From an uncultured Clostridia bacterium (GTDB lineage Bacteria > Bacillota > Clostridia > Oscillospirales > Acutalibacteraceae), in NCBI GenBank assembly GCA_944380765.1, contig CALWIO010000003.1, forward strand, positions 1,701 to 65,700: DNA of 64,000 bases, read 5' to 3'. Shown here piece by piece: positions 4,154 through 41,198 of this stretch. The stretch's first letter is position 1. Every line of letters starts with the position of its first letter. The position numbers were made by a program, and so were the translations under genes. The notes below the pieces were generated by a model. It was not told the DNA's origin. It searched no databases and was given only the letters and a program-made list of their open reading frames with translations.

Positions 4154-4168
4154 AATATCAGCCCCTTA

Positions 4169-5173: not shown

Positions 5174-5190
5174 ATTGTCCTCCTTATGAT

Positions 5191-5532: not shown

Positions 5533-5544
5533 ATTTTATCCTCC

Positions 5545-7645: not shown

Positions 7646-7646
7646 A

Positions 7647-8921: not shown

Positions 8922-9405
8922 CGGCTAAAACGCTCTCCTTTTCGGCGGCGCTGCGTTCAAGCGCCTCGTAAAAGGACGCCGCGGCTCCCGCACGGTCGCC
9001 GTAAGAAATTTCGCCGAGCCTTTCAAGAGCCTTGATTCTGTCAAAGAATTTGATTTCCATGCCCTTGCCGCAGGTGTATTTGATTTCCGAAACCGAGAAC
9101 AGGTCCAGAGAGTCAATGTCGGGGGAGTTTTCACCGCCGCAGGACAAAATCAGTTTTACCGCGTCGGACACCGAGCCGAAAGCAAGGCGTTTGAGTCCCG
9201 CCGCTATCAGATTATCGTCGGCGGCGTTCTCTTTTTCCAGCTCTTTTATCCTTTCCTTTACGCTTTTCTTTGACAGCATACCCATAGCCCTGTGTTCGGG
9301 CATCACCGAAAACCCGGCTTTGCGGGCGGCCTCTTTGGGATTTTGCAGTTTCGCGTACCACCGGCAGAACTCCGCTTCCTTTTTGGTCAGTTTACTTTCA
9401 CTCAT
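8914..9405 (-). CDS. terS: Phage terminase small subunit
   Basis: 163 aa from ATG 9405 (GGAGG RBS). N-terminal LTKKEAEFCRWYAKLQNPKEAARKAGFS is HTH-like, as in small terminases. Overlaps terL by 8 nt. Confidence 0.75.
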   Translation of the reverse strand: MSESKLTKKEAEFCRWYAKLQNPKEAARKAGFSVMPEHRAMGMLSKKSVKERIKELEKENAADDNLIAAGLKRLAFGSVSDAVKLILSCGGENSPDIDSLDLFSVSEIKYTCGKGMEIKFFDRIKALERLGEISYGDRAGAAASFYEALERSAAEKESVLADG

Positions 9406-18241: not shown

Positions 18242-18427
18242 TTTTATGAGCATAAAAATCAGTTAATTTTTGGCAGTTTTGCCATTTTCTTGTAACAAAA
18301 TGCACAAATGGGTGTAACAGAATTTGGCTGTAATTTGAATAAAATAGTCAAAAACCCCTTGAAATCATATAGCCGCTTTGATAAAATATATCTGTATAAT
18401 TATAACTCCGGATTGAGAGGATTCAAA

Positions 18428-20317: not shown

Positions 20318-20374
20318 TTAAGCAAAGCTTAAATATATAAACTTAAACTCTGCGAAAAATAAGGAGGAAAATAT

Positions 20375-21592
20375 ATGGCACGAAAAGTGGAGTGCATTGC
20401 AATGCTTCTTGCAGGCGGTCAGGGAAGCCGTCTGGGCATACTCACCAAGAAGATTGCAAAACCAGCCGTTCCCTACGGCGGAAAATACAGAATTATTGAC
20501 TTCCCTCTGTCAAACTGCGTAAACTCCGGCATTTCAACCGTCGGCGTTCTTACGCAGTACCAGCCCCTTGAGCTCAACGATTACATAGGCAACGGTTCGG
20601 CATGGGACCTTGACAGAATGAACGGCGGCGTTCACATTCTCTCGCCCTATCAGCAGATTAAGGGCACCGAGTGGTACAAGGGAACAGCCAACGCGATTTA
20701 TCAGAACATCAATTTTATCGACAGATATTCACCCGAATATGTTGCGGTACTTTCAGGCGACCATATCTACAAGATGGACTACAACAAAATGCTTGAATAT
20801 CACAAGGAAAAAGGAGCCGCCTGCACAATAGCCATGCTTGAAGTGCCGTGGGAAGAGGCAAGCCGCTTCGGACTTATGATTACCAACGACGACAACTCGA
20901 TTGCCGAGTTTGAGGAAAAGCCGAAAAATCCCCGCAGCAACAAGGCTTCAATGGGCGTTTACATATTTACATGGAGCAAGCTGCGCCAGTATCTTATCGA
21001 CGATGAAAACGACCCGGATTCCAGCAACGACTTCGGTCACGATGTAATTCCGAAAATGCACGCCAACGGCGAAAAGATGTTCGCCTATCTCTTTGACGGC
21101 TACTGGAAAGATGTAGGAACAATCGACAGCCTGTGGGAGGCGAACCTTGACCTTCTCAACCCCAAGGTTGACCTTGATTTATCGGACCAGAGCTGGAAAA
21201 TTTATTCGCGCACTCCGGTTGCTCCTCCTCACTACATAGCGGACACGGCTTCCGTTCAGAACTCCATGATTTCAGAGGGCTCCCAGGTCTTCGGCGAGGT
21301 GGAATACTCCATACTCTTCAACGATGTTGTGGTTGAAGAGGGCGCGGCCGTAAAATATTCGATAGTTATGCCCGGAACGGTTGTCAAGTCGGGCGCTACG
21401 GTGCAGTACTCGATAGTTGCCGAAAACGCCGTCATTGAAAAAGGCGCGGTTGTAGGTCAGTGTCCCGAGCAGATGGAAAACCGCGACGACTGGGGAGTTG
21501 CGGTTGTAGGTCAGGGAGTAAATGTAAGCGAGGGCGCCGTTGTTGCTCCCAAAGCCATGGTTGACGAAGATGTAAGAAAGGGGGACAAATAA
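20375..21592 (+). CDS. glgC: Glucose-1-phosphate adenylyltransferase, catalytic subunit
   Basis: 405 aa with LAGGQGSRL, the [14 protein letters not shown] motif and a C-terminal left-handed beta-helix. Confidence 0.95.
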
Positions 21593-21593
21593 T

Positions 21594-22709
21594 ATGACCG
21601 GCAAGAACATTGTAGGAATTATCTTTTCAAACGCTTATGACGAGTGTTTAAGCGAGCTTACGGGACTTCGCACAATGGGTTCGGTCCCCTTTGCTTGCAG
21701 GTACCGTTTGATTGACTTTGCCCTTTCAAATATGGTCAACGCCGGAGTTGAAAAAGTCGGAGTTGTTACAAAGAGCAACTACCAGTCGCTTATGGACCAT
21801 CTGGGAACAGGAAAACCGTGGGATTTGTCAAGAAAAACCGAGGGTATGTTTATTCTTCCCCCGTTCTCAACCGCCGACGGCAGCGACAACGGCAACAAAA
21901 TGGCTTCATTAAAAGGCATTATGGGATTTATCAGCCGTTCAACCGAGGAATATATCCTCTTTTCGGACTGCAACAGCGTGCTGAATATCGACATTGAGGA
22001 GCTTATGGAATACCATTCCGAAAAGGGCGCCGACATTACCTTGGTTTACAAGCACGGTCAGATTCCCTCAATCAAGAATGTTATAGTAATGGACCTTGAC
22101 GCCGACGGCAGAGCTTCAAAGGTGGCTGTTTCGCCCGCCGACAGGGGCGAGGTTGACTATTCGCTCAATGTTATCCTTATGAAAAAATCCCTGCTTGAAC
22201 GCCTTATGAACGAGGCTATCAGCCTTAACTACACTCATTTTGAGGCAGACCTCATTCAGCGCAATGTGGGCAGTCTTAAAATTTACGGCTTTGAAGCTAA
22301 GGGCTACGCTACTACCATTGAGTCAATGCAGTCCTATTTCAAAACAAATATGGATTTGCTCGACCCCAAAAATTGCGCGCATCTCTTTGACAAGAGCCGT
22401 CCCGTCTATACAAAAATACGCGACGATATGCCCTCTATTTACGGGCTTGGCTCCTCGGTCAAAAACTCCCTTATCGCCGACGGCTGCATAATCGACGGCG
22501 AGGTTGAAAACTCAATCCTTTTCAGAGGCGTTCGCGTTGAAAAGGGCGCGGTTGTCAAGAACTCCATACTTATGCAGGGTACCTTTGTGGCGCAGAACTC
22601 ATCGCTTAACTGCGTTGTAACCGACAAGAGCGTTGTTATAACTCCCTCAAAAACTCTTTCGGGCGCCGAAAATTATCCCGTATATATCGGCAAGGCAATC
22701 GTAATCTGA
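21594..22709 (+). CDS. glgD: Glucose-1-phosphate adenylyltransferase, GlgD regulatory subunit
   Basis: 371 aa GlgC paralogue lacking the GGxGxRL motif, directly after glgC as in Firmicutes. Confidence 0.85.
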   Translation: MTGKNIVGIIFSNAYDECLSELTGLRTMGSVPFACRYRLIDFALSNMVNAGVEKVGVVTKSNYQSLMDHLGTGKPWDLSRKTEGMFILPPFSTADGSDNGNKMASLKGIMGFISRSTEEYILFSDCNSVLNIDIEELMEYHSEKGADITLVYKHGQIPSIKNVIVMDLDADGRASKVAVSPADRGEVDYSLNVILMKKSLLERLMNEAISLNYTHFEADLIQRNVGSLKIYGFEAKGYATTIESMQSYFKTNMDLLDPKNCAHLFDKSRPVYTKIRDDMPSIYGLGSSVKNSLIADGCIIDGEVENSILFRGVRVEKGAVVKNSILMQGTFVAQNSSLNCVVTDKSVVITPSKTLSGAENYPVYIGKAIVI

Positions 22710-22757
22710 TTTTATGAAAGGAACGCCCCGCCAAAGGCGGGGCAAAGGTCTTATAAT

Positions 22758-24182
22758 ATGAAGGTTTTATATGTTTCGAGCGAAGCGCTCCCCTTTAAGG
22801 CGAGCGGCGGTCTGGGCGATGTGGCGGGCAGTCTGCCGCAGGCTCTGCGCAAAAGGCTTATAGGCTGCCGGGTAGTTATGCCCCTTTATGACACCATCAG
22901 TCAGGAGCTTAAAGACTCCATGACCTTTATAACCAGCATTTCCGTACCCGTTGCGTGGCGCAGGCAGTACTGCGGCGTTTTTGAGGCAAAAGCGGGCGGA
23001 GTAATCTACTATCTGATTGACAATCAGTATTATTTCAAGCGTGACGGACTTTACGGCTACTATGACGACGCCGAGCGTTTCGCGTTTTTCTCACGCGCAG
23101 TGCTTGAAATAATCCCCTATATCGACTTTAAGCCCGATATAATCCACTGCAACGACTGGCAGTCGGCTCTGACTCCCGTTTATTACACCACTCTTTACGC
23201 CAACCGTCCCGGATACGAGAACATCAAAACCGTATTCACAATACATAATATTCAGTATCAGGGCAATTACGGAATGGAGCTTGTAAACGAGGTTGTCGGA
23301 ATTCCCGAGGGCACCTCTTCGCTTATTGAGTATGACGGCGATGTAAACTTTATGAAGGGCGCTATTGAAACCGCCGACAGGGTCACCACCGTAAGCCCCT
23401 CCTACGCCAACGAAATTCTTGACCCCTGGTATTCCCACGGTCTTGACATTATTTTAAATCAGCGTTCATGGAAGCTGTCGGGTATTCTCAACGGTATTGA
23501 CACCGAGCTTTATAATCCTGAGACCGACAAGGATATCGCCGCCAATTACAATGCCGCCGATTTTAAAAACAAAAAAATCGACAAGCAGAAATTGCAGGAG
23601 TATTTCTCGCTTCCCGAGCGTGACGATGTTCCCGTTATCGGTATGGTTACACGCCTTGTGGGGCACAAGGGGCTTGATTTGGTGCGCGCCGTTCTTGACG
23701 AACTGCTTAACACCTGCGATGTTCAGTTTGTAGTGCTCGGCTCGGGCGAGTGGCAGTACGAAAACTTCTTTAAGGAAATGGCCGCCAAATATCCCGACAA
23801 AATGGGACTTAAGCTCGGCTTTATCCCCTCGCTCTCAAAGAAAATCTACGCGGGCGCGGATATGTTCCTTATGCCCTCAAAGAGCGAGCCCTGCGGCCTT
23901 TCGCAGATGATTTCCCTGCGCTACGGCACAATCCCGATTGTGCGTGAAACAGGCGGACTGCGCGACAGCATTAAGGACAGCGGCGACGGCGAGGGCAACG
24001 GCTTTACATTTGCCTCCTACAACGCCCACGATATGCTGTTCACAATCAAGAGGGCGCTCGAAGGCTACCGGAACCGCGAGGGCTGGAATATCCTTGTGAA
24101 AAGGGCTATGGAATGCGACAACAGCTGGGGCAAATCCGCCAACGAATACATTAAGCTGTATAAAGCCCTTTTAAAGGACTGA
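22758..24182 (+). CDS. glgA: Glycogen synthase (ADP-glucose type)
   Basis: 474 aa with N-terminal KASGGLGDV motif; GT5 family features. Confidence 0.95.
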   Translation: MKVLYVSSEALPFKASGGLGDVAGSLPQALRKRLIGCRVVMPLYDTISQELKDSMTFITSISVPVAWRRQYCGVFEAKAGGVIYYLIDNQYYFKRDGLYGYYDDAERFAFFSRAVLEIIPYIDFKPDIIHCNDWQSALTPVYYTTLYANRPGYENIKTVFTIHNIQYQGNYGMELVNEVVGIPEGTSSLIEYDGDVNFMKGAIETADRVTTVSPSYANEILDPWYSHGLDIILNQRSWKLSGILNGIDTELYNPETDKDIAANYNAADFKNKKIDKQKLQEYFSLPERDDVPVIGMVTRLVGHKGLDLVRAVLDELLNTCDVQFVVLGSGEWQYENFFKEMAAKYPDKMGLKLGFIPSLSKKIYAGADMFLMPSKSEPCGLSQMISLRYGTIPIVRETGGLRDSIKDSGDGEGNGFTFASYNAHDMLFTIKRALEGYRNREGWNILVKRAMECDNSWGKSANEYIKLYKALLKD

Positions 24183-29351: not shown

Positions 29352-29387
29352 GAAAAGCAAAAACCGCCGGACAAAAACCGGCGGTTT
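29352..29387 (-). terminator. Rho-independent terminator ending the eight-gene surface operon
   Basis: Minus strand ACCGCCGG-N7-CCGGCGGT followed by TTTTTGCTTTTCC, about 40 nt after the last stop codon. Confidence 0.85.
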
Positions 29388-29427
29388 AATCTTTTATTAT
29401 CGGTTGTTTTAACGCCTTTCGGCAGCT

Positions 29428-30333
29428 TTACGCCTCTTCTTCCTCATCCTTACGCTTTCTGCGGAAAAGAGGAATAAGGATAAACATAAACACGGTCACA
29501 ACCGCTATTCCGGTGGGAATCATTGGATTCTCACGCAGGAAGGCGCTGGTGTTGGGAATAATAGTATCAATGATACTTTCTTCCTCTTCCTGAGTTTCTT
29601 TTATTGTAACGCTCATATCGTCGTTAACAATAAAATCGACATTGATTTCCTTTGTGCCAACAGGAACGGTTATAAGCTGAGTTCCGTTCGGAAGCCGCTC
29701 AATTTTCATTTTTGAAACAGAGTTGCTTACAGCTATTGAAAAGCCGTCTCCGCCGATTACGGCGCCGTTATCATCGTATATAGTTACCTGATGATACCCG
29801 TCTTTAATTTCGCTTAAAGAATATTTACCGTTTTTAATCTCGGCGCTGTTGGAACCCAAGTCAAATTCCAGCCTGCCGCCGGGGAGCAGCTTATCGCCGC
29901 GGAAAACATTACCGCTCATTGCCATTCTCACGCATGGATCCTCGTGCGTAGGTTCTCCCTCGGGAGTGTCAGAGCCGTCGCAGCTTTCAAAATCGAAGAT
30001 AACCTCAATATCGGTATTGACATTTTCAAGAGTCAGCTGACCGTATAGCATATCATCGGTTTTATCCTCGCCGTTTACATAGACCTTTTTAAGGTGTGCA
30101 TCGCTGTCGGCTATAATATCAAGCCTGATATCCCCGAAACGGCCGATTTCAATTACCGAACCGCTGGGAACAAGCTCGCCGTCCATCAAAACGATACCGC
30201 CTTCGTTATAGACAACCGTGATTTCGTGTTCGCCGGGCACAACCGTTGAAAGCTGCGCTTCCTGAGCGAAAACGGAAAAAGATAGTAACATAACAAGCAG
30301 TAAGCTCATTACAATGCCGCTTGCCTTCTTCAC
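29428..30333 (-). CDS. Secreted beta-rich protein with C-terminal transmembrane anchor (operon gene 8)
   Basis: 301 aa with a GTG start after AGAAAGGGA. Signal peptide (..SFSVFAQE). C-terminus is IPTGIAVVTVFMFILIPLF-RRKRKDEEEEA, i.e. a hydrophobic helix plus basic tail with no LPXTG. Confidence 0.8.
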   Translation of the reverse strand: MKKASGIVMSLLLVMLLSFSVFAQEAQLSTVVPGEHEITVVYNEGGIVLMDGELVPSGSVIEIGRFGDIRLDIIADSDAHLKKVYVNGEDKTDDMLYGQLTLENVNTDIEVIFDFESCDGSDTPEGEPTHEDPCVRMAMSGNVFRGDKLLPGGRLEFDLGSNSAEIKNGKYSLSEIKDGYHQVTIYDDNGAVIGGDGFSIAVSNSVSKMKIERLPNGTQLITVPVGTKEINVDFIVNDDMSVTIKETQEEEESIIDTIIPNTSAFLRENPMIPTGIAVVTVFMFILIPLFRRKRKDEEEEA

Positions 30334-30365
30334 GAAATCATCCCTTTCTAAATAGCTGCCTGTAA

Positions 30366-30860
30366 TTACGGAGTGGGTGCGTTATAAGTAACCGTATAGG
30401 TAAGAGTTCCTGTGTACTCAGCAATCGGAACGCCCGAGAAATCCGCTACCGTAACGGTAGTGTCAGATGTTACATTGTCTGTAACGGCAGGATAGGTCTG
30501 GCTGGTTGTTCCGCCGAGAGCAAAAGTAAGGAAATACTGGGGGTCAGCCTGAGCGTTTGTCATTTTGTTTTCATTGTTGCCGGTGACCTCTACTTTAAGA
30601 GTCGCGCCGAGCAGAAGCTGCGCGTCAACGGTGTAAGCCGCGTTCTGAGCCGAGGTGTCCTCCCAGTCAATAGCGATTTCGGCGGGAATTGTTACGCTGT
30701 ATTTATAAGCATCTTCACCACCGGTATTTGTCGTTTTGGTATAGACATTTACATCGGAATACTGGTTGATAGAATCCTTATCGATTGTCGCCGCGAAAGA
30801 TGTAACGCAGAGCGTAGCCATCATAGCGAGCGCCAAAACAACTGCAAGTATTTTTTTCAT
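30366..30860 (-). CDS. Secreted paralogue P1 of novel ~150-aa family
   Basis: 164 aa with signal peptide MKKILAVVLALAMMATLCVTSFA. Motifs YSVTIPAEIAIDW, LLLGATLKVEV and EYTGTLTYTV. Confidence 0.85.
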   Translation of the reverse strand: MKKILAVVLALAMMATLCVTSFAATIDKDSINQYSDVNVYTKTTNTGGEDAYKYSVTIPAEIAIDWEDTSAQNAAYTVDAQLLLGATLKVEVTGNNENKMTNAQADPQYFLTFALGGTTSQTYPAVTDNVTSDTTVTVADFSGVPIAEYTGTLTYTVTYNAPTP

Positions 30861-30887
30861 TGTAATTACTCCTTATATTTCCGCCCG

Positions 30888-31343
30888 TCAGACGATTTGA
30901 GCGGTGTAAGTGATTGTGTCGGTATATTCCGCAACGGGAGCCAGATCCCACGCTTCCTGCGCAACGGTTACCGTGATTGTGTTTGTTGTGCTTTCAGCCG
31001 CAGTAGCGGTATAGTCGGTAGTGCCACCGAGCATATAAGCAAGTGTAAGGGTGTCGTATGTCATCTCTTCGTCAGAAGCCGCGGTGATATTAAGGCTCTT
31101 GCCGGCTTCAAGGTGAGTTTCAACGGTATAAGAACTTTCAACCGCTGTGGTCTGATTCCACGGAACGGAAATTTCCGCGTCATAAATTACACTGTATGTT
31201 CCGCCTGCGGGAACTGTCGATGTATCTGTTTTAACAAGGCTGGAGCCGGTGTTCGCGGTTTCTGTAAGCTCATTGGCAAAAGCCGGAACGCACAGCGCAC
31301 AGAGCATTATGAGAGCCGTTAAAAGCGCAATAATTTTTTTCAT
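30888..31343 (-). CDS. Secreted paralogue P2
   Basis: 151 aa with signal peptide ..CVPAFA. Motifs YSVIYDAEISVPW, LEAGKSLNIT and WDLAPVAEYTDTITYTA. Confidence 0.85.
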   Translation of the reverse strand: MKKIIALLTALIMLCALCVPAFANELTETANTGSSLVKTDTSTVPAGGTYSVIYDAEISVPWNQTTAVESSYTVETHLEAGKSLNITAASDEEMTYDTLTLAYMLGGTTDYTATAAESTTNTITVTVAQEAWDLAPVAEYTDTITYTAQIV

Positions 31344-31360
31344 TTTTACTCCTCCTAAGT

Positions 31361-31846
31361 TTACGGTGTGGGCATTACTACTTCGGCTTCGAAGGTAAGA
31401 TTGTCGGTGTATTCCTCGATGGGAACATTTTCCCAGTCCGCCGCAGTTACATTGATCTGAATGGTTTTTGTCTCGTTTGCGAAAGCGGCAATCCCCACTA
31501 CATTTGTATCACCGGTTACGGTGTAGGGAAGCTGCTGAGTGCCGCCGGCGTTTTTCATTGCCGAGTTTACAGAAGCAACCGTTACGTTCAGCGTTGCACC
31601 GGGAATCAGCTGCGTTTCAACATCATAGGTCTCGGCTGTTTGTTCTTCGCCCCATTTTACATCAATTACGGCGGGATAGGTTACGGTGTAATAGCCGCCG
31701 CTTGCTTCAAGGTCGCTGTAATCGGTTATAACCGGCGTACTGCCGCTTGACGGAATACTTCCTTCGGTGATCTCGCCTGCGAATGCGGGAACGGTTACGG
31801 CAAAGAGCATCATAACCGCCAATAATACGGAAACTATTTTTTTCAT
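31361..31846 (-). CDS. Secreted paralogue P3
   Basis: ATG 31846 is 5 nt after AAGGAGTG. Signal peptide ..TVPAFA. Motifs YTVTYPAVIDVKW, LIPGATLNVTV and WENVPIEEYTDNLTFEA. Confidence 0.85.
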   Translation of the reverse strand: MKKIVSVLLAVMMLFAVTVPAFAGEITEGSIPSSGSTPVITDYSDLEASGGYYTVTYPAVIDVKWGEEQTAETYDVETQLIPGATLNVTVASVNSAMKNAGGTQQLPYTVTGDTNVVGIAAFANETKTIQINVTAADWENVPIEEYTDNLTFEAEVVMPTP

Positions 31847-31867
31847 GGTTTTCACTCCTTAGTAAAA

Positions 31868-32365
31868 TCAAACGATTTCAGCGGTGAAGGTAAGAGTGTC
31901 GGAATAAGTGCCGACAACCGCGGCGCCCCAATCCGCCTCTGCGATTGTTACGGTAAGATCCTGCTCTACCGCGGGAGTGTCAACTCCGCCGTAAACTACC
32001 GGTCCGCCGAGATATTCTGTTACACCGTCAAGGTTGTAAGCAAGCGTGTAAGTATCCTCAGCGCTGGCAACATAAGTCATAGCGCCGCTGCCCGCAACCG
32101 TAACTTTAAGCTGTTCGCCGTAACGCAGGTGAGCTTCTACCGCATAGCTAAGGTCAACCGGATCGGTTTCTCCCCACGGAATCTGTGTGTCGGCAGGGAT
32201 TGTTACATAGTAACTCGCGCCGTCATTTCCCGAAGCGTCCTGCTCCAGCGTCTGCACCAAAACCGTACCTGTGGCATTGTCCTTGTCAAGCTGCGCCGCA
32301 AATGCGGGAACGCAGAGAGTTAAGAGCATTGCCATAAACAAAACAACAGAAATAGTTTTTTTCAT
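31868..32365 (-). CDS. Secreted paralogue P4
   Basis: ATG 32365 is 6 nt after AAAGGAGTG. Signal peptide ..CVPAFA. Motifs YYVTIPADTQIPW, LRYGEQLKVTV and WGAAVVGTYSDTLTFTA. Confidence 0.85.
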   Translation of the reverse strand: MKKTISVVLFMAMLLTLCVPAFAAQLDKDNATGTVLVQTLEQDASGNDGASYYVTIPADTQIPWGETDPVDLSYAVEAHLRYGEQLKVTVAGSGAMTYVASAEDTYTLAYNLDGVTEYLGGPVVYGGVDTPAVEQDLTVTIAEADWGAAVVGTYSDTLTFTAEIV

Positions 32366-32386
32366 TTTAAGCACTCCTTTAAAAAA

Positions 32387-32839
32387 TTATATGTTTACGC
32401 ATTCTGCCTGAAATGTAAGCAAGTCCGTGTGCTCGCCAGCCGCGGCTTTTCCCCACTGCTCGTCAGTCACCGACACTGTCAGCTCAAAAGATTTGTTTAC
32501 CTCACCCGGCAGGAAGCTTATATCGTCTGCTCCGGAAAGAGTGTACTCAATTGTTTTCTGAGCGTCCATTGTGTTAACGAGCTTATAGTCGTTTTGCGAT
32601 GTTACGGAAACAGTCAGTACTTTTCCGGGCTCAATTTGCAGCTTTTCCGACTTGACCTCGCCTATGCCATAGGTTTCACTCTCCCATGGAATCTGTGTGT
32701 CAGCGGGAAAATACAGCGTCCAAACTTCATTGGTTGACGAGGTTGAAATAATCATTTGACTCTCGTCCGCCGCAAAAACGGGCAGAACCGTGAGAGTGAC
32801 AAGAACAACCGCCGCCAGAAGCGATAAAACTTTTTTCAT
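32387..32839 (-). CDS. Secreted paralogue P5 (most divergent)
   Basis: ATG 32839 is 7 nt after AGGAGGG. Signal peptide ..VLPVFA. Motifs LYFPADTQIPW, IEPGKVLTVSV and WGKAAAGEHTDLLTFQA. Confidence 0.85.
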   Translation of the reverse strand: MKKVLSLLAAVVLVTLTVLPVFAADESQMIISTSSTNEVWTLYFPADTQIPWESETYGIGEVKSEKLQIEPGKVLTVSVTSQNDYKLVNTMDAQKTIEYTLSGADDISFLPGEVNKSFELTVSVTDEQWGKAAAGEHTDLLTFQAECVNI

Positions 32840-32857
32840 TGACAAACCCTCCTGATA

Positions 32858-35800
32858 TTATCCTTTTGTATAATTAACGGTATATGTAACAGCCGCGTCC
32901 TGCCTGTATTCGGCAACCGGCTTGTTAACCCACTGTGAAGCCTCTACCTGTATCTGCGCCGCGTCTGTACGGTTTACAGTCGCTTTGCCTGTATAAACTC
33001 CGGGAGCGCTTACCGAAGAGGTGCAGGATATTACCTCGCTTGTGCCCGTATTGGTCAGATCAAAGGCGCTTTGCTTGAACGCCACGCTGACCTGTACTTC
33101 GGAGCCTGCGTTAAGATTACAGTTAATCTGATATCCGAGATTTGTTGACTCAGATCCCCACGGTATTCCGATTTCCGCCGGAATTGTCACCACATAGGAA
33201 TCGTCGGAAGCGTAGGTCACGCTGACCGTTTTAAGATCCTCGTATTTACGGTTGATGCCGTTTGAGTCAACATACTCATAAGTAAGTTTTATATATACCT
33301 CATCGCTGAGCGCAGCCGTAACGGAAGCGGGAGAATCAACGCTGAAACGAAGCGTCAGGCTGTATGAGCCTGAATCAGCCGGGCCGACACTGCCGTATGG
33401 CGTTTCGGTACTGTTCAAAACGAACGGTGTGCCGTTCACGGTCATGGTGTAGCTGAGCGGCGACTGCGAACCGTCCGCCGCGACAAGCTGACCGCCGTTC
33501 TTTGACCACACGGAAATCTGTGCCGTACCGCTTAAATCGCTTAAATAGCGCTCAAAATCAACGAGTGTATAAACCATATCGTTTTCGGTCTGCGGATTTT
33601 CGTCTGAAAGAATAACGCTGCTGTTCGGCACCATTCCGCTGTCCGTACTTGTTTCAAGCGTAGTCTTTGCGTACGGGAACAAATCGCGTATCTGCTGAAT
33701 CATATCGTACAGCTCGGCAACATTGTAGAAAGTGGGTATCAAGGCGTCATATTCTTCAATAGTCGCCCTAAGCTCTTCCCTTTCGGCGTCGGTAAGAGGA
33801 GTTCCTGACGCGAGCTTGTTCCTTGTTACGGTCAGCAGGTTGTTGTACTTATCATAAAGCGACAAAAGTCCCGCTCTTGTGGTAGTGCCGTTTATATTGT
33901 ATGTTGTCGAGTTGAGCAGCAGCTTTCTTATAGCTGTCGGTATATTTTTATAGTCGGAGTGAGCCTCACCCGAAGCCATAAGATATTTGGCAAAATAATC
34001 CATGCTGCTGCGATAATTATCATTTAGCTGCGAAAGCGAATCACGGTAACCCGTTCCGAGCGATATAAAGTATCCTTCGCGGCCGTCATAAGGTTTTGTT
34101 TTGTCATAAACCGTTGCCGGCTGTCCGGAAGAACCTAATTCCGTTCCCGCTGTTCCTGCCGCCTTGTCGGGATACCTCAAAGGAAGCTGTCTGTAAATCG
34201 AATCAGCCGAATTAACATCGGTAAGTTCATTTAACATTTCCGTTGTATCCGAAAGAGCTTTTTCAAGCGTTTCGTTACACCTCATCGCCGCGTTATAAGC
34301 ATTGATAAACTGTGTGCACAGCTCGTCGCCTATCAGTTGTTTCTGAGCTGTTGTGTACCTTGAATAGTCAAGATTGTAATACTCTATAATCTGCTCCGCC
34401 TGCTCTTTGGTAATTCCGTAAGCTGCATAGTTTACAGCGTCCGCCATTCCGTCGGAATCGTTATCAACATACCCGGGATAAGGCAAATCCTGCTCGCCGG
34501 ATACCGAAGCGTTCTTAACCGCATTGGGAAGTGAATTCACCCACGCAACGAAAGCCTCCGGCTCATCACGGTACATATACTCGCTTTGCGGAATTTCTCC
34601 TGAAATTACTTTTTCGTAATATATAAGCCTTTCATTGGCATTTATTACCGACTGAACCTGAGTCCTCTGATATTCCGTAAGGGTATTATACTGTACCCTC
34701 GCCGCAAATACATCGTCTGCAAAGAGACCGTCGTTAATCTCAATTGCAGCGACAGCATCCTCAAACTGCTGAGCCGGAAGGCTCTTCGCCTGACAAACCT
34801 CGTCGAAGTCCGTGTCGTTTCTGCCGGTTACTCCGGGATATACATCGGGCTGATAGGCAAAGCCGATGGTGTCAATCATATAAGAAGCGCCTGTCATAGC
34901 GACCGCCGCCGCGTTGGAATTGGGTGCTACACCTATTTGAACCTTACAAATTCCGTTGAGCGCCGTTACGCTTTCGTCCATGCCCACGCCCTCATTTATC
35001 AAGCCGGACCTCTCACCCTTGAAATGATACAGCGGAAGCATAACCCAGCCCTTATAGTGGTCGAGGCTTAATCCCTCGGCGCCGTCTGACGAATTGTAGC
35101 CGTATATACGGTTGCTGTAACAGCAGACCCATTCGCCGGTATCCGGATTCAAAAGCCAGTATTTTCTGTCTCCGGAATCCGTACCCATATCCAGAGTATA
35201 GTCGGTAAGATTTCCGTCAGAGTCTTTCGTTGTAATGGTCGCCGTAAGACGGAAATCGGAGAGCTGGCTGAAGTCTGCATAGAACGCAAGCGCCAGCGGA
35301 AGAATCTTGGTTTCGTCATAGCTTCCGGGATTATACTGGTTCGCAAACTGACCGAGATTGAACTGCCCCATATTGTTATTAAGAAGACTGTCGGTCGTTC
35401 CGTCCTGTCCCTGATAGGTGACGGAAAGAACATTGTAAAAGCCCTCGTTTTCACTGTATCCCTGCCCGTTGAGCTGTATCACGGCAGCGTTTGTGCCGTT
35501 AAATCCGCCGGCTTCTATTGTCGCAAGCATTTGGTTAACATAAAGGGGATCGGTGTCCGCGGTGTGATCGGCTCCGGACGATCTTCGAAAACCGTCCACA
35601 ATCGGATATGACCATGAATATGAGCCTAAGGAACCGGTAGCATCACTGTCAGCACCCGTAAATCCGCGGAAACGCTTTGTAGTATATGTCAGGAAGCCCT
35701 TTGTGTAACGGTAGTCCTGCCCGTAAACGCCTGAGCCTAAGTTCGGATAGTTTTCAAGCTGCCAGGCCATTGAGCCCTGCGTCTGGTTCGCGGCGTCAAA

Positions 35801-38143
35801 GTCATTGAACACTATAAATTTGTTGTTTGCCAAGGACTGACCTACAACATCCATTTCTGAATCGGAAGAACCGCTGCTCATAAGAGCGAAATAGCTGCGA
35901 AGCTCCTGTTCCTCGGCGGTGCTCAGTGCGTCAAGCTGAGTAAGATTAAGTCTTCTGTAAAGCTGATAGAGCTTTTGTATCTCATCATTAAGCTGATCGC
36001 TGACGCTTGTTACATTTGACGGGTCAGGAAGCTTTTCCATGCTTCTTATAAGCTCCGGCACCAAATCGTATGCCGTTATATTTGTGGGATATGCCGCCGA
36101 CGCCGTGGGATTGTCCGGGTCATTCGGCGTTATTGTACCCGCCGCCCAGCACTCTTTGCGCGCGGTTATAAAATTGTTCCAGCTTTCCCGTCCCTGGGAA
36201 GCCGCCAATGCCGCCAGAGAATCCTCGCTTAAAAAGTCGGTGGAAACACCCGCCTGTGAAAAGGCTGTGCGGTATCCCTCTATAAGCTCTTCAATATACC
36301 GTACCGCGCCGAAGTCGGCAAGGTCCGGGCTTGAAAGATAATGATCTATTTCAGAAAGTATGCTGTTCGCAATTTCCTCTTTCTGCTCGTAATATTTTGA
36401 AGCCGGGTCGCCGGTGTTCTTCTCATTGCCGTCCAGCGTGTTTTCCGGGTAGGCCTGCCCGTCGGTTCTGTAAAACAGAACATTATCCATAAAGAAACTC
36501 TTATTTACGCTTTCATCGCTCGTATCCTTATAAGAAAATCCCGCAGAATAAAGGTCATTTATAGCTTTAAGTCCGTTCTCACGGTTTAGTACCGTTCCGT
36601 TTTGAATATACGCCCTGTCCGCCGTGCTGTTTGTGTCGGCCTCGTCCATTTTGTAACCCGCCGCGAGCATTGCAGCGCCCCAGGTCGGGTATTCCATATA
36701 GGCGTAATCTCCGCTTGCGTAATCATAGGGATAGTGCCACTTGGCCTCACTTGCACCGCCTGGATTATAATCAGTACTCTTATCAACCGCGAACTGACGG
36801 TACTGAATAAGCATGGCGTCGGAAACCGAGGTGCCCGCCTCGTCAACAAGCACCGGCTGGCTGTAAAGAATATTATTTTCAAACCATGCTTTTACCTCGG
36901 CGCCGTCGTTTTCACGATTCAGCACGCACACGGTGTCAACCATGTTGAAGTTCAAATTGGTAGCTTCGGCGTAGGTATTCTTTGTGGAGCACATAAACTC
37001 AAGCGGCACGCGGATATAACCCTTGTAATGAGAAAGGTCTATAGTGCCGTTGTTAAGCATTACCTTCTGCCAGCCGCCGTTTTCCTGCTGAATAAAAACA
37101 TATGGCGCTTCGCCCTTATAGCCGGAAGCGGTTGTGCCGAGCGTAGAGTAGGTGACGGGGCTGTACTGGTCTGTTCCGCCGCTGTCAAACTTTACTACGC
37201 CGTCGTCAAGCGAGGTGTCTCTGCCGTTTGTGTGTCCGCCGAAGGCTCTTTTATTTCGATAGTAGAACTCGCCTAAAAGCTTTGCGTTGGTTTTAAGGTC
37301 AAAGGAAAGACCGGTTACCGAAACCTGAGAAAGGTCCATCCAGAACCATACTTCTTCGGCACCTTCAAAGTCATAGGTCTGACGGCTGTACGGCGTCGTA
37401 AAAGCTTGTGTCACCCCGCCCGTTCTGTTATTTATATAGAATCTGAGCGCAGATGAACTCAAACCTGTTGACGGGTCGATAACGCCGTCGCGTGTGCCTA
37501 TGCCGTACAACGCAAGACTGCTGCCTGTAAGCTGTCCCGTAGGAGTACCGCCGCTCTCAAAAATCATCATCTCGCGCATTGCCTTTTCATTCTCGGTCAG
37601 AGGCGCGTACGCGTCGGCATCATATTCAAATCTCGGAGTATCTGTAACTGCGCAGTCAATCGGTTCGGAAACCCAGCCTGTGCTGTCAACTGCTGTTATG
37701 CGGATATTGTAACGGTTGTTATCTGAAAGAGTCACTGACTTTGCCGAAAGCTCCGCAGCTGTAATATTAAGCGAATAATAAGTGCTTGAAGCATCTGTTA
37801 CGGTCACCGTTTTTTCGTATTCCAGCACTCTCTGATGCAATGAGAGCGTAGATCCGAGATTATACAGCGACAAAAGATAATAGCTTATCGTTTTCGGCTC
37901 TTTTCCCGGATACTCACGGGCAGTCGCGGCTGAAAACATTACATGCACACCGCCGTCGTCAAGAAGATAGGCCGCAGCTGAAGCGTCGCTCGTGAAAACC
38001 GGCGTCGGGTCGTATGTACCGGGTCCCGCCGCGAGAGCAATCGGAAGCGAACCGACTATCATAATCGCCGACAGCAGCACCGCCATCAGCTTTTTGTTCA
38101 CTTTATTTGTTTTACCAAAAGCTGAAAATATTTGTTTTTTCAA
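32858..38143 (-). CDS. Giant secreted multidomain protein (~1,760 aa) ending in a paralogue-type domain
   Basis: Likely TTG start at 38143 (AAAGGAGAG plus 8 nt); the ORF is open to 38173. Has a signal/anchor helix. The C-terminal ~140 aa carry YVVTIPAEIGIPW, LNAGSEVQVSV and WVNKPVAEY...VTYTV. Confidence 0.85.
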   Translation of the reverse strand: MKKQIFSAFGKTNKVNKKLMAVLLSAIMIVGSLPIALAAGPGTYDPTPVFTSDASAAAYLLDDGGVHVMFSAATAREYPGKEPKTISYYLLSLYNLGSTLSLHQRVLEYEKTVTVTDASSTYYSLNITAAELSAKSVTLSDNNRYNIRITAVDSTGWVSEPIDCAVTDTPRFEYDADAYAPLTENEKAMREMMIFESGGTPTGQLTGSSLALYGIGTRDGVIDPSTGLSSSALRFYINNRTGGVTQAFTTPYSRQTYDFEGAEEVWFWMDLSQVSVTGLSFDLKTNAKLLGEFYYRNKRAFGGHTNGRDTSLDDGVVKFDSGGTDQYSPVTYSTLGTTASGYKGEAPYVFIQQENGGWQKVMLNNGTIDLSHYKGYIRVPLEFMCSTKNTYAEATNLNFNMVDTVCVLNRENDGAEVKAWFENNILYSQPVLVDEAGTSVSDAMLIQYRQFAVDKSTDYNPGGASEAKWHYPYDYASGDYAYMEYPTWGAAMLAAGYKMDEADTNSTADRAYIQNGTVLNRENGLKAINDLYSAGFSYKDTSDESVNKSFFMDNVLFYRTDGQAYPENTLDGNEKNTGDPASKYYEQKEEIANSILSEIDHYLSSPDLADFGAVRYIEELIEGYRTAFSQAGVSTDFLSEDSLAALAASQGRESWNNFITARKECWAAGTITPNDPDNPTASAAYPTNITAYDLVPELIRSMEKLPDPSNVTSVSDQLNDEIQKLYQLYRRLNLTQLDALSTAEEQELRSYFALMSSGSSDSEMDVVGQSLANNKFIVFNDFDAANQTQGSMAWQLENYPNLGSGVYGQDYRYTKGFLTYTTKRFRGFTGADSDATGSLGSYSWSYPIVDGFRRSSGADHTADTDPLYVNQMLATIEAGGFNGTNAAVIQLNGQGYSENEGFYNVLSVTYQGQDGTTDSLLNNNMGQFNLGQFANQYNPGSYDETKILPLALAFYADFSQLSDFRLTATITTKDSDGNLTDYTLDMGTDSGDRKYWLLNPDTGEWVCCYSNRIYGYNSSDGAEGLSLDHYKGWVMLPLYHFKGERSGLINEGVGMDESVTALNGICKVQIGVAPNSNAAAVAMTGASYMIDTIGFAYQPDVYPGVTGRNDTDFDEVCQAKSLPAQQFEDAVAAIEINDGLFADDVFAARVQYNTLTEYQRTQVQSVINANERLIYYEKVISGEIPQSEYMYRDEPEAFVAWVNSLPNAVKNASVSGEQDLPYPGYVDNDSDGMADAVNYAAYGITKEQAEQIIEYYNLDYSRYTTAQKQLIGDELCTQFINAYNAAMRCNETLEKALSDTTEMLNELTDVNSADSIYRQLPLRYPDKAAGTAGTELGSSGQPATVYDKTKPYDGREGYFISLGTGYRDSLSQLNDNYRSSMDYFAKYLMASGEAHSDYKNIPTAIRKLLLNSTTYNINGTTTRAGLLSLYDKYNNLLTVTRNKLASGTPLTDAEREELRATIEEYDALIPTFYNVAELYDMIQQIRDLFPYAKTTLETSTDSGMVPNSSVILSDENPQTENDMVYTLVDFERYLSDLSGTAQISVWSKNGGQLVAADGSQSPLSYTMTVNGTPFVLNSTETPYGSVGPADSGSYSLTLRFSVDSPASVTAALSDEVYIKLTYEYVDSNGINRKYEDLKTVSVTYASDDSYVVTIPAEIGIPWGSESTNLGYQINCNLNAGSEVQVSVAFKQSAFDLTNTGTSEVISCTSSVSAPGVYTGKATVNRTDAAQIQVEASQWVNKPVAEYRQDAAVTYTVNYTKG

Positions 38144-38169
38144 GATTTTTGCTCTCCTTTCCGAAAAAG

Positions 38170-38973
38170 TCAAGACGCAACTATAACCGTCTTAATGTCC
38201 ATATTGTTAAGCGGGCGCTGTTCCTTGTCAAAGCTGAAGCAGAGGAAATGAACAGTAACATCATATTCTCCCGCGTCCAGCGCCCTGTTGAGTTCAAATT
38301 TTGAGATGTGGTATCCGGGCGGAATAAGGTCGGATTTATAAAGAATTTCGCCCGTGTCGCGCATTTCTATTTCTATCTGGAAATAGCAGGGGTTTTCTTC
38401 CGGATTCGCAAAAACATAGTTCTGCGAAGTCTGACCGGCTTTAAGCTGCATCTGTGCTATTCCGTTTATTTTAATCTGTTTGCCCTTGGTTTCGGTTTTT
38501 TCGGGGACGGATACCTCACCCTCGCCTAGCTCCGCACCTGTATCTATTACACCGCTGCCCGTATTGTCAGCGGGGGGAGTATCGGAACTGTCGGGCCAGA
38601 AAAGTACTACCGCCGCCGCAATCGCCGCGATTACAAGAAGACCCGCAATTACCGCGAGAATGATGGCCGCGAGAATATCCCTGACAACGGCTATAAACTC
38701 ATGCTCGCCCACCTGAACATATCCGCTGACCGAGGTGTGAGGCATTTTCCGGGTTTTATAAACCTTTTCGTCAACGCCGCCGAAGCTGAGAACGCCCGTT
38801 TCGGTACGGCCGGCGCCTATCTGGCCGACGACATAGTAACCGCCTGCGGGAAAAGCCTTTTTCATATCGGCGCTCTTTATGTAGGAAACCCTGAAACCGC
38901 TTTTTTTATTAACATATGTTTTGTTTGCCGTTATTTCACCGGCATATACGGTAAACTGAACTGAATCTGCCAA
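38170..38973 (-). CDS. Single-pass membrane protein (operon gene 1): N-terminal cytoplasmic beta domain, TM, extracellular beta-sandwich-like domain
   Basis: 267 aa with a TTG start 7 nt after GGAGG. Central TM ILAAIILAVIAGLLVIAAIAAAVVLFW. The stop overlaps the open frame of the giant gene. Confidence 0.75.
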   Translation of the reverse strand: MADSVQFTVYAGEITANKTYVNKKSGFRVSYIKSADMKKAFPAGGYYVVGQIGAGRTETGVLSFGGVDEKVYKTRKMPHTSVSGYVQVGEHEFIAVVRDILAAIILAVIAGLLVIAAIAAAVVLFWPDSSDTPPADNTGSGVIDTGAELGEGEVSVPEKTETKGKQIKINGIAQMQLKAGQTSQNYVFANPEENPCYFQIEIEMRDTGEILYKSDLIPPGYHISKFELNRALDAGEYDVTVHFLCFSFDKEQRPLNNMDIKTVIVAS

Positions 38974-39085
38974 GAAAAGACCTCCGTACCATGTGCCGAA
39001 ACCCGTCAGAATTCAAAGAAAAACATCTTGCCGGGAGCCGGCGCAAAAACACTTTTAGAATCTATGTATACTATAAGACAATTTA

Positions 39086-39113
39086 ATTATACTAAATTTT
39101 GACTTGTTGTCAA
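39086..39113 (-). promoter_or_regulatory. Near-consensus promoter of the surface operon
   Basis: Minus strand TTGACA (39113-39108), 16-nt spacer, TATAAT (39091-39086); about 105-nt leader to the TTG start. Confidence 0.6.
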
Positions 39114-39226: not shown

Positions 39227-39260
39227 ATTTAGAAAACTTTTTATAAAAAGTTTTCTAAAT
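39227..39260. repeat. Perfect 34-bp AT-rich palindrome
   Basis: ATTTAGAAAACTTTTTA|TAAAAAGTTTTCTAAAT checked base by base. Sits just upstream of the -35 region of the GH35 promoter. Confidence 0.9.
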
Positions 39261-39440: not shown

Positions 39441-41198
39441 ATGTTTGAAATCAAAGGCAATCAGTTTTTTATGGACGGCAAGCCCTTTAACATATATTCG
39501 GGCGCCATGCACTATTTCAGAACGCTCCCCGATTACTGGGAGGACCGGCTTAAAAAGCTTAAACTGGCAGGGTTTAACACGGTCGAAACCTATGTCTGCT
39601 GGAATCTGCACGAGCCCTCGCCCGGAGAATTCGATTTCAGCGGTATGCTCGACATTGAGCGCTTTATTAAAACCGCCGCCGGTCTGGGTCTTTACTGTAT
39701 TGTAAGACCGGGACCGTACATCTGCGCCGAATGGGATTTCGGAGGACTGCCCGCGTGGCTGTTAAAGGATAAAAATATGCAGATACGGTGCAGTTATCCC
39801 GACTTTACCGCCGCCGTCGGGCGTTTTTACAAAGAACTGCTTTCCCGCCTGGAGCCTTTGCAGATTACAAGAGGCGGCAACATCATCGCCATGCAGGTTG
39901 AAAACGAGTACGGCTCCTACGGCAACGACAAGGAGTATCTCGCGTTTATTGAAAAGCTTATGCGTGACTGCAAAATCGACTGTCAGCTTTTCACCTCTGA
40001 CGGAAACTGCCGTGAAATGCTTTCGGGCGGCACTCTGCCCCATATTTTTAAGGTGCTCAACTTCGGCTCAAAGGCTAAAACGGCTTTTGAATGCCTTAAA
40101 GATTTCCAAAAGGACGGCCCACTGATGTGCGGCGAGTTCTGGTGCGGCTGGTTTGACCACTGGCGCGATATTCACCACACCCGCACAGCCGCCGAAATTG
40201 CCGCCGAGGTTCAGGATTTTCTGGACATTGACGCCAGCTTCAATTTCTATATGTTCCACGGAGGAACCAACTTCGGCTTTACCGCCGGAGCCAACTTTAC
40301 CCCCGGCAAGCCCTATGAGCCTACGGTCACCAGCTACGATTACTGCGCGCTTTTAAACGAGTGGGGCGACTATACCCCCGCCTATCATGAAGTCAGGCGC
40401 ATACTGTGCGAAAAGCAGGGTATCCCCTTAGGCGAGCTGCCCCCTTCGCCGAAGCTTCAAAGCATAGGCAGAGTTACGCTCACCGAATGCGCTCCTCTCT
40501 TTGAAAACCTTGACAATATAGGCGAAAAGCACCGTGTTCCCGTGCCGGAAAGCATGGAGTATTTCGGTCAGAATTTCGGCATGATTTATTACGAAACCAC
40601 ACTCAGCGGAAAATACGGCGAGTCGCGCGTTTCATTTAAAGATGTGCACGACTTCGGCTATGTCTATTTTGACGGCGAGCAGAAAAAGGTTATTGACCGC
40701 ACCCTTTACACCGACCCCAAAGGCGACGGCGACACCTCGGTTTTAATGGACTCCCTTGACGGCAGCCTTAAAATCGGCGTACTTGTGGACACCATGGGCA
40801 GAGTAAACTACGGCGAGAAAATGCTCGACCGCAAAGGACTTTCGGATATTTACATAGGCAACCAGCGCCAGATGGGCTTTGATGTGTGGACATTGCCGCT
40901 TGATAACCTTGAAAATCTGTGCTATTCCCACAAAATTGAGAAAAACACCCCCGTATTTTTAAAAGGCCGCTTTAAAGCCGCCGGCAGAGAGGACTGCTTT
41001 GTGCACCTCGGCTCTTTCCAAAAAGGATATGTGTTTGTCAACGGCTTTAACCTCGGCAGATTCTGGAATGTGGGACCACAGAAATCCCTTTACCTGCCCG
41101 GCGCCCTGCTTAAAGAGGACAATGAAATCATAGTGTTTTCCGCCGATTCCTTTGAAACCCCCGAAATCTCCATTCTCAACACCCACGATTTGGGGTAA
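39441..41198 (+). CDS. Beta-galactosidase, glycoside hydrolase family 35
   Basis: 585 aa. N-terminal GH35 signature (YSGAMHYFR...WEDRL.K.K..G.NTVETYV.WN.HEP) and QVENEYGSYG acid/base region. Confidence 0.9.
   Translation: MFEIKGNQFFMDGKPFNIYSGAMHYFRTLPDYWEDRLKKLKLAGFNTVETYVCWNLHEPSPGEFDFSGMLDIERFIKTAAGLGLYCIVRPGPYICAEWDFGGLPAWLLKDKNMQIRCSYPDFTAAVGRFYKELLSRLEPLQITRGGNIIAMQVENEYGSYGNDKEYLAFIEKLMRDCKIDCQLFTSDGNCREMLSGGTLPHIFKVLNFGSKAKTAFECLKDFQKDGPLMCGEFWCGWFDHWRDIHHTRTAAEIAAEVQDFLDIDASFNFYMFHGGTNFGFTAGANFTPGKPYEPTVTSYDYCALLNEWGDYTPAYHEVRRILCEKQGIPLGELPPSPKLQSIGRVTLTECAPLFENLDNIGEKHRVPVPESMEYFGQNFGMIYYETTLSGKYGESRVSFKDVHDFGYVYFDGEQKKVIDRTLYTDPKGDGDTSVLMDSLDGSLKIGVLVDTMGRVNYGEKMLDRKGLSDIYIGNQRQMGFDVWTLPLDNLENLCYSHKIEKNTPVFLKGRFKAAGREDCFVHLGSFQKGYVFVNGFNLGRFWNVGPQKSLYLPGALLKEDNEIIVFSADSFETPEISILNTHDLG

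Follow-up and report, generated by a model that had tools for sequence, protein, structure and literature searches.

The window analysed here is a stretch of 64,000 nucleotides from contig CALWIO010000003.1 of an uncultured Clostridia bacterium, and this study concerns a cassette of eight genes, g1–g8, that lies within it on the minus strand and encodes a putative cell-surface system. Eight tightly packed open reading frames (ORFs), all on the minus strand, have the layout of a single operon. In order of transcription they are g1 (38170–38973; 267 residues); the giant g2 (32858–38173; 1771 residues from the longest start, or 1761 from the start, ten codons further in, that is used by the database gene callers); the five small paralogues g3 (type C, an orthogroup of its own; 32387–32845; 150–152 residues), g4 (type A; 31868–32374; 165–168 residues), g5 (type B; 31361–31855; 161–164 residues), g6 (type F; 30888–31343; 151 residues) and g7 (type D; 30366–30860; 164 residues); and g8, a putative anchored stalk protein (29428–30333; 301 residues). 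The gaps between them, from g1 to g8, are −4, 12, 12, 12, 17, 27 and 32 nt, and ribosome-binding sites of the GGAGG type precede most of the starts. A promoter of perfect consensus (TTGACA, 16 nt, TATAAT; 39086–39113, minus strand), the only site between 28.5 and 40 kb to match at 12 of 12 positions, lies approximately 110 nt upstream of the first start codon, and an intrinsic terminator with a 10-bp stem (seven GC pairs) and a T-rich tail (29361–29387, minus strand) stands directly past the last stop. ORF and signal analysis thus confirmed what an initial annotation, made from the DNA letters, had described: one promoter and one terminator enclosing eight packed genes. We found no internal terminator or attenuator within the operon, which, together with the even gaps (12–32 nt), suggests that the genes are expressed at similar levels. 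Regulation by a riboswitch or another known RNA was rejected because no match was found in the 110-nt leader or in the rest of the region at 28.8–39.5 kb. Seven of the eight products have Sec-type signal peptides, and the remaining one, g1, is a bitopic membrane protein.

The products of g3–g7 are indeed paralogues, as had been proposed, being 25–41% identical to one another (BLASTP E values of 6e-7 to 7e-33). An acidic beta-sandwich domain of approximately 125 residues makes up the entire mature part of each. The signal peptide consists of MKK, a hydrophobic stretch and VPAFA, with ordinary A-F-A cleavage ahead of a further alanine, and the proteins stop right after the domain. The mature forms are strongly acidic (pI approximately 4.05), cysteine is absent from four of the five, and each has between two and seven lysines, none of them conserved. 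No conserved set of Lys, Asn, Asp, Gln or His residues that could form isopeptide or ester bonds was found in the small proteins; given this and the near absence of cysteine, we rejected covalent locking of the subunits by isopeptide, ester or disulfide bonds. An AlphaFold2 model of the mature part of g6 is all-beta, with a predicted local distance difference test (pLDDT) score of 82.9, and its least confident part is the N-terminal strand (mature residues 11–16; pLDDT 56–72). The best matches of this model in the Protein Data Bank (PDB), using Foldseek, were CfaB, the pilin domain of PapG, CsuE, CsuA/B, FimG and SafA, all with weak scores (E values of 1.8e-3 to 5e-2 for the first five and of 1.8e-3 to 0.1 for the set as a whole, and TM-scores of 0.5 or less) and accompanied by PapD-like and other immunoglobulin (Ig) folds. 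We therefore treat the likeness of the small domain to the chaperone–usher pilins as a weak lead, and not as a classification.

The same domain, hereafter the docking domain, ends the giant protein (residues approximately 1655–1768; nt 32870–33211), as the initial annotation had noticed. Residues 1637–1756 of g2 match g5 with a BLASTP E value of 7e-10, and profile–profile comparison of its C-terminal domain with the small-protein profile gave a probability of 99.8% and an E value of 2.8e-28; this similarity begins only past the N-terminal strand of the small proteins. At its other end, g2 has a signal peptide that ends at about ALA-AG near residue 48. Two internal modules, at residues approximately 357–400 and 1003–1057, are related to each other (hhalign probability 95%) through a common block, G-x-W...HYKGY(I/V)x(I/L)PL, and are probably copies of a duplicated beta-sandwich binding module for which Pfam has no model. 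The full-length family of g2 is found in 43 genome loci.

The product of g8 consists of a signal peptide, an N-terminal strand (QLSTVVP), beta domains, an acidic spacer rich in Pro and Asp, and a C-terminal region resembling a sorting signal. This region (nt 29431–29559) reads IPNTS-AFLRENP, then a hydrophobic transmembrane helix and RRKRK-DEEEEA, and on its sequence it would be a degenerate signal of the sortase type; the ENP past the motif is reminiscent of LPETGEENP in staphylococcal protein A. The N-terminal motif [LIVM]xTx[IV]P is conserved in 35 of 36 g8 homologues. At the other end, all 36 have the basic run and 32 have xxxTG or xPxTx ahead of the helix, the form xxxTG (for example ISKTG) occurring in 14. 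The protein thus appears to be derived from a sortase substrate, or still to act as one. Of 37 loci, 35 have a g8 homologue after their last small gene. A jackhmmer search seeded with g8 also recruited small proteins, owing to the signal peptide; with the mature parts the hhalign probability was 0.3%, and the idea that g8 is a diverged copy of the small domain was rejected.

The bitopic protein g1 comprises a cytoplasmic beta domain (residues 1–99), a transmembrane helix (residues 101–125; nt 38599–38673), a linker and an Ig-like ectodomain (residues 174–266; nt 38176–38454), and a homologue of it lies upstream of the giant gene in 46 loci. Its AlphaFold2 model (pLDDT 86.6) gave only weak, generic Ig matches against the PDB with Foldseek, with a best E value of 5.8e-3; the matches of the ectodomain include PapD, FimC and Caf1M (E values of 1.2e-2 to 4e-2) and several self-complemented pilins. 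The linker (residues approximately 139–159; window 38500–38560) is predicted to be disordered (pLDDT 45–59), and within it G141, D144, A147, G150, G152, P157 and K159 are nearly invariant. It is a candidate for a segment that becomes ordered upon binding of a partner.

None of the eight products belongs to a recognisable family, in agreement with the initial annotation. Pfam and NCBIfam gave nothing above noise for any of them, and searches of the PDB with profiles of all four families found no sequence relatives. Scanned member by member, 143 proteins with the small domain matched no curated family, apart from a weak Fimbrial_CS1 match in one of them; likewise, no Pfam domain was found in 45 homologues of g1 or in 13 homologues of the giant. 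Among the 36 homologues of g8, the sole recurrent Pfam match was to a generic beta-sandwich resembling CarboxypepD_reg, in 20 of them. By these searches, the cassette defines at least four protein families that lack a curated model, and we found no description of it in the literature.

In order to see how far the genes occur together, as the initial annotation had advised, loci were collected by using an alignment of giant proteins as the query against one genome per species. This gave 43 loci, of which 42 are labelled metagenome-assembled or uncultured, the exception being ‘Eubacterium sp. CAG:180’; apart from that genome, the hosts are named Candidatus Fimenecus, which NCBI places in the Clostridia, Ruminococcaceae, Oscillospiraceae or simply Clostridia. 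The survey showed that the four gene types do co-occur. Complete in 35 of the loci, all of them in uncultured genomes of Candidatus Fimenecus or Oscillospirales, the cassette has a constant order: a g1-like gene, the giant, 3–11 small genes and a g8-like gene. The flanking genes vary among loci. The Pfam families listed for the annotated neighbours of the cassettes, and for the genes of the 64-kb window, include no sortase, signal peptidase or pilus machinery, and no ORF of 150–350 residues on the same strand in loci L001–L048 contains the sortase motif TLxTC.

The small genes are themselves ordered. In all 34 other loci the best match of g3 is the first small gene, at 35–61% identity, whereas g3 is only 25–29% identical to the neighbours in its own operon. 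Written as strings of orthogroups, the small genes read CABFD in the window and CAABFD or CAABFDGBBD elsewhere, the general pattern being C-A(A)-B-F-D with internal expansions (CAABFD followed by GBBD); type C is always first, type A is second in most loci and type D is last in 23 of 35. Because the order of the orthogroups is fixed, the paralogues would not be interchangeable, and the pattern argues for small proteins that are non-redundant, position-specific subunits. Close relatives differ in how many small genes they have, within a range of 3 to 11, and, judging from the orthogroup strings, the number appears to grow by internal duplication.

When the mature small domain was the query of an exhaustive profile search, 802 representatives were found at E ≤ 1e-3, of which 257 reached E ≤ 1e-10. 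The domain is C-terminal in all of the best 150 matches listed, in proteins of approximately 150, 240, 290, 460 or 1,700 residues. Besides the cassette proteins, the family has members in which the domain follows leucine-rich repeats (LRR) of the BspA type (Pfam LRR_5, E = 3.8e-87) and three representatives in which it follows a secreted ubiquitin domain (PF00240, E = 2.2e-26). The genes for both kinds of fusion are solitary, standing among housekeeping genes outside the cassettes. Since the same domain ends these solitary proteins, it seems to be a portable docking module, a general address for the cell surface. The ubiquitin fusions (P0098, P0126 and P0142; locus L065, 8001–8717) have a signal peptide, a eukaryote-like ubiquitin starting with MQIFVKT and the docking domain, their genes stand beside murein ligase genes, and they look like bacterial surface-displayed ubiquitin, which we take to be reminiscent of the secreted ubiquitin of Bacteroides fragilis. 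The BspA-type LRR fusions P0021, P0032, P0052 and P0061 (locus L068, 8001–9389) are solitary too; on the L068 contig, a sortase gene and a gene with a cohesin domain are found near the fusion.

The search with g1 also returned proteins of 161–167 residues with a short N-terminus, a transmembrane helix and an ectodomain, and these open mini clusters (L049, 7995–10402; L054, 7499–9047; L055–L059). Each mini cluster contains a divergent XRE regulator, the transmembrane Ig protein, one or two small proteins of 170–185 residues and an anchor protein, with a further short gene in some. The anchor has 162–172 residues; at its end, NPKTGD or IPQTGD precedes a hydrophobic helix and a run of basic residues. 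The small proteins encoded there share homology with the window's own small proteins (hhalign probability 98.3%, E = 2.5e-14); clustered at 90% identity, this mini family makes up 808 groups, none of which bears a name. The mini cassette is a widespread, stripped-down, homologous relative of the cassette. Its small and anchor proteins start with a near-identical strand (TTLTTTVP and TTLTANVP). In L054, genes for an integrase, Rep and a NikA-like protein lie directly beside the mini cluster, which may travel on a small integrative element.

The initial annotation had called the Csc/WxL clusters of Lactobacillales the nearest system in spirit. A WxL cluster is made up of small WxL proteins consisting of the domain only, large WxL proteins with N-terminal adhesion modules, an Ig-like WxLIP protein with a C-terminal transmembrane helix and, often, an LPXTG protein (PMC9772566, PMC10599100), and AlphaFold2 models have a strand of the membrane-anchored WxLIP completing the WxL sandwich (PMC10599100). 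For comparison we took genes for WxL proteins, seven in all, and for WxLIP from plasmids of Enterococcus, Bacillus and Lactiplantibacillus; the clusters fetched share the published layout, and one from Bacillus has three consecutive small WxL genes. At the level of architecture the match with these clusters of Lactobacillales and Bacillales is four-for-four, which bears out the suggested kinship in spirit. Both systems have the same four-part logic, with all components either secreted or anchored in the membrane; once mature, the small protein contains nothing but the domain, and the large protein has the same C-terminal domain behind adhesion modules, so that small and large proteins with a common C-terminal domain lie in one cluster; and in both there is an Ig-like partner with a transmembrane helix followed by a basic tail, and a sortase-type signal, degenerate in g8, within the cluster. 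The analogue of WxLIP here is g8, which is secreted and has beta domains and a C-terminal transmembrane helix. The differences are, however, considerable. The domain here has approximately 125 residues, compared with 160–190 in WxL; the D-x-R-GTxAG-W-x-L motif of WxL is absent; there are 3–11 small paralogues in a fixed order, rather than 1–3; there is an additional bitopic protein, g1, with its N-terminus and a domain in the cytoplasm; and the hosts are Oscillospirales rather than Bacilli.

Homology to WxL was considered in particular, and the profile match in its favour was rejected as evidence. The absence of WxL motifs stated in the initial annotation was borne out by searches with PF13731, which matched none of the 143 family members (E ≤ 0.05) and none of eight mini-cluster proteins (E ≤ 5). 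A first profile match of the mini family to WxL, with an hhalign probability of 70% (94% in global mode), arose because signal peptides had been included; trimmed of them, the match fell to 2.6% (P = 0.018), and the trimmed WxL profile against the small family of the Fimenecus loci gave 0.4%. Neither DUF916 nor DUF3324 matched any of the 36 homologues of g8 or 45 homologues of g1, and hhalign comparison of WxLIP with the g8 and g1 ectodomains gave probabilities of 3.5% or less. The segments TIPAxxxIxWG and YxDTLTFTA align with sIDxVxxLxFG and YxxxLTWxL, without significance; the latter is part of YxxxLTWxLxxxP, which we take to be the C-terminal motif of WxL and to resemble the YxDTLTFTA found here. 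The comparison with Csc/WxL is apt at the level of architecture, and homology in sequence is not supported. In its logic, the cassette is a variant of the Csc/WxL surface clusters that occurs in a different class of Bacillota and has additional paralogues as well as one component more.

Other surface systems share less with the cassette. Chaperone–usher pili, such as the ordered tip fibrillae PapG-F-E-K and the class 5 pilus CFA/I, also have a two-domain adhesin whose C-terminal domain belongs to the polymer, several paralogous small subunits with position-specific roles and a terminator or anchor encoded last, and the fold matches of the small domain, weak as they are, and the chaperone-like Ig matches of g1 add to this likeness. 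Here, however, there is no usher, no PapD-family chaperone by sequence and no outer membrane, and the TM-scores do not exceed 0.5; no Pfam or NCBIfam match to an usher or to a PapD-family chaperone was found in the eight products, nor is either among the Pfam families listed for the neighbouring genes. The fibre systems TasA/TapA/SipW of Bacillus and BsaA of Clostridium perfringens are likewise built in Bacillota from Sec-exported beta-sandwich subunits, with an operon-encoded accessory protein associated with the membrane and a conserved strand near the mature N-terminus. The cassette differs from them: it lacks SipW and an isopeptide triad, its cleavage sites are of the ordinary AxA kind, and it has many paralogues in place of a single major subunit; neither the eight products nor the 143 small-domain proteins match Peptidase_M73/TasA. 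Sortase-assembled pili have a comparable logic of tip, shaft and base, and the C-terminus of g8 is like a sorting signal, but the small proteins here have neither a C-terminal sorting signal nor a conserved pilin lysine, and no Cna/SpaA-type domain was found in the cassette products.

The spore appendages Ena and F-ENA are defined by subunits of the DUF3992 and DUF4183 families, respectively, which have no Sec signal and are cross-linked by disulfides (PMC12357932). In contrast, all of the subunits here have signal peptides and four of the five small proteins lack cysteine; Pfam matched neither family in the cassette products or in the 143 small-domain proteins. The class III signal of type IV pilins, G-F-x-x-x-E, is not present in the sequences of the small proteins, and there are no type IV pilus genes among the Pfam families listed for the window. 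The initial annotation had thus been right to report no sortase, SipW/TasA motif, chaperone–usher gene or type IV pilin signal, whereas its further statement that LPXTG signals are lacking needs qualification, given the degenerate IPNTS of g8 and the xPxTG of the mini-cluster anchors. The families that it had named as possible homes of the small proteins (WxL, TasA/camelysin, Cna-type pilins and Ena) gave no confident match to them. With CWB2, SLH and dockerin modules the docking domain has in common that one conserved module targets varied passengers, from scattered loci, to the same surface structure; the difference is that here domain-only proteins occur in multiple ordered copies beside dedicated membrane partners.

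In these monoderm gut Clostridia, the operon probably specifies an apparatus for displaying proteins at the cell surface, namely a surface stalk or adhesin complex on a WxL-like plan. The form that we tentatively favour, as possible rather than established, is an ordered and anchored surface chain tipped by the giant adhesin. In such a chain, the docking domain would join the partners by complementation of a beta-strand or of a sheet edge, and the giant, as the distal adhesive head, would be followed by the type-C adaptor g3, by types A, B, F and D (g4–g7) and then by g8, all in roughly stoichiometric amounts. g8 would serve as a wall-spanning stalk, held in the membrane by its C-terminal helix or attached to the wall by a sortase, while g1, with its membrane-tethered Ig-like ectodomain, would be a holder or assembly factor that holds or primes the assembly. 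The system would then be a clostridial functional counterpart of Csc/WxL, with a geometry like that of an ordered chaperone–usher tip fibrillum. A bolder form of the proposal, which we regard as unlikely, is that the length of the stalk is set genetically. With no usher involved, each of the 3–11 diverged paralogues would enter the stalk a single time, at the place given by its gene order, and be joined to the others by strand complementation; g1 would start or hold the stalk, g8 would root it and the adhesin of 1,770 residues would cap it. The number of small genes would set the distance between adhesin and wall, and the LRR and ubiquitin proteins would be loaded on to the same stalk.

In favour of an ordered chain are the operon structure and even gaps, the conserved cassette and its homologous mini form, the fixed order of the small genes, the domain shared by small proteins and giant, and its constant C-terminal place behind passengers whose genes are solitary. 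The start of the giant's similarity past the N-terminal strand, the low confidence of that strand in the g6 model, the weak pilin matches, the Ig-like ectodomain of g1 and the strand complementation modelled for WxL count on the same side. Several points weigh against a chain of this kind. With a best E value of 1.8e-3 and a TM-score of 0.5, the Foldseek matches of the small domain do not reach significance, and they are of a kind that any Ig-like sandwich tends to give. The LRR and ubiquitin fusions retain the N-terminal strand between passenger and domain, and in g3 and the mini family only three or four residues join this strand to the next one; a retained strand and so short a joint accord with an ordinary hairpin formed in cis more than with strand donation. 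The strand motif common to small and anchor proteins is a feature of the mini clusters only, being present in one of 227 Fimenecus-type small proteins. Finally, the data come throughout from metagenome-assembled genomes.

The LRR and ubiquitin fusions are no less in keeping with a docking module of general use than with a pilin, and it is conceivable, if somewhat unlikely in our estimate, that there is no chain at all, but a wall-bound platform resembling that of WxL, in which the small proteins and the giant attach separately, through their shared domain, to peptidoglycan or another wall polymer, to g8 and g1, or to both, the small proteins being the platform or a filler around the adhesin. 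The four-for-four match of components with Csc/WxL, LRR adhesion modules included, is as expected of such a platform; runs of three small paralogues also occur in some WxL clusters, acidity is a trait that the small proteins here share with the small WxL proteins, and the solitary fusions resemble proteins that carry an all-purpose domain for wall anchoring. However, the 143 + 8 + 36 proteins gave no match to WxL, DUF916 or DUF3324, the comparison with real WxL genes after removal of the signal peptides reached only the P value already given, and up to 11 domain-only paralogues, with conserved first and last types, are hard to reconcile with independent wall binding. Another reading, close to the fibre that the initial annotation had proposed, is a true long pilus: one or more of the small proteins would be added over and over to a polymer through donor-strand exchange, the giant would act as its tip adhesin, and g8 would terminate and anchor it. 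The fold matches of the small domain (CfaB, PapG, CsuE, CsuA/B, FimG and SafA), the single weak Fimbrial_CS1 match and the PapD, FimC and Caf1M chaperones among the matches of the g1 ectodomain all point in that direction, and donor-strand fibres made without a chaperone, for example TasA and BsaA, exist in monoderms and archaea. We nevertheless consider such a pilus improbable: no gene for a major subunit is evident, given the equal spacing and the lack of an attenuator, the fold matches are weak throughout, there is almost no cysteine and no conserved Lys/Asn/Gln/His triad for covalent locking, and in several subfamilies the N-terminal strand resembles an in-cis hairpin.

The anchoring domain CWB2 of C. 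difficile is common to many proteins, and an anchoring domain distributed in this way, the existence of solitary fusions and the acidity of the small proteins, a property of many S-layer proteins, would also suit a two-dimensional coat in which the small paralogues together build a lattice, g8 and g1 hold it in place, and the giant and the LRR and ubiquitin fusions are inserted into it. The variation from 3 to 11 copies with conserved first and last types fits a line better than a lattice, however, and the subunits are very small for an S-layer, which makes such a coat highly unlikely in our view.

Of the genes beyond the operon, the divergent neighbour is, as the initial annotation had placed it, a GH35 gene (39441–41198, plus strand), from which a role of the cassette in glycan binding had been called conceivable. 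GH35 lies within 10 kb of the cassette in only five other loci and is adjacent to it in none. It was therefore rejected as a functional partner and, GH35 not being a conserved neighbour, the glycan-binding idea is without support. A perfect, AT-rich palindrome of 32 nt (window 39228–39259; TTTAGAAAACTTTTTA followed by TAAAAAGTTTTCTAAA) lies where the operon promoter and GH35 diverge, in the intergenic DNA that separates them, and could be an operator or a bidirectional hairpin. Downstream of the cassette, at window 18308–24182 on the plus strand, is a glycogen operon (glgB, glgC, glgD and glgA) that is ordinary and unrelated to the cassette. Further away, at approximately 3019–9405 on the minus strand, there is a compact phage-like block with the small and large terminase, a portal, a Phage_capsid_4 protein and several small ORFs. 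It is flanked by a major facilitator superfamily transporter and a pair of MarR and ATP-binding cassette transporter genes, with no integrase or tail domain among the flanking genes listed, and its candidate identities are a remnant prophage, a satellite and a unit resembling a gene-transfer agent.

Oscillospirales are abundant in human and animal guts, and the way in which they present proteins at their surface is almost undescribed. The portable docking domain of the small-protein family, which has approximately 800 representatives at 50% identity, offers a handle for finding the displayed surface proteins of uncultured gut organisms. The displayed set includes a giant putative adhesin as well as secreted ubiquitin-like and LRR proteins, which may act on the host or on competitors. 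If the analogy with WxL is true, then Bacilli and Clostridia have reached the same four-part, sortase-free plan of display; if the chain model is true, the cassette would represent a new assembly route for Gram-positive appendages.

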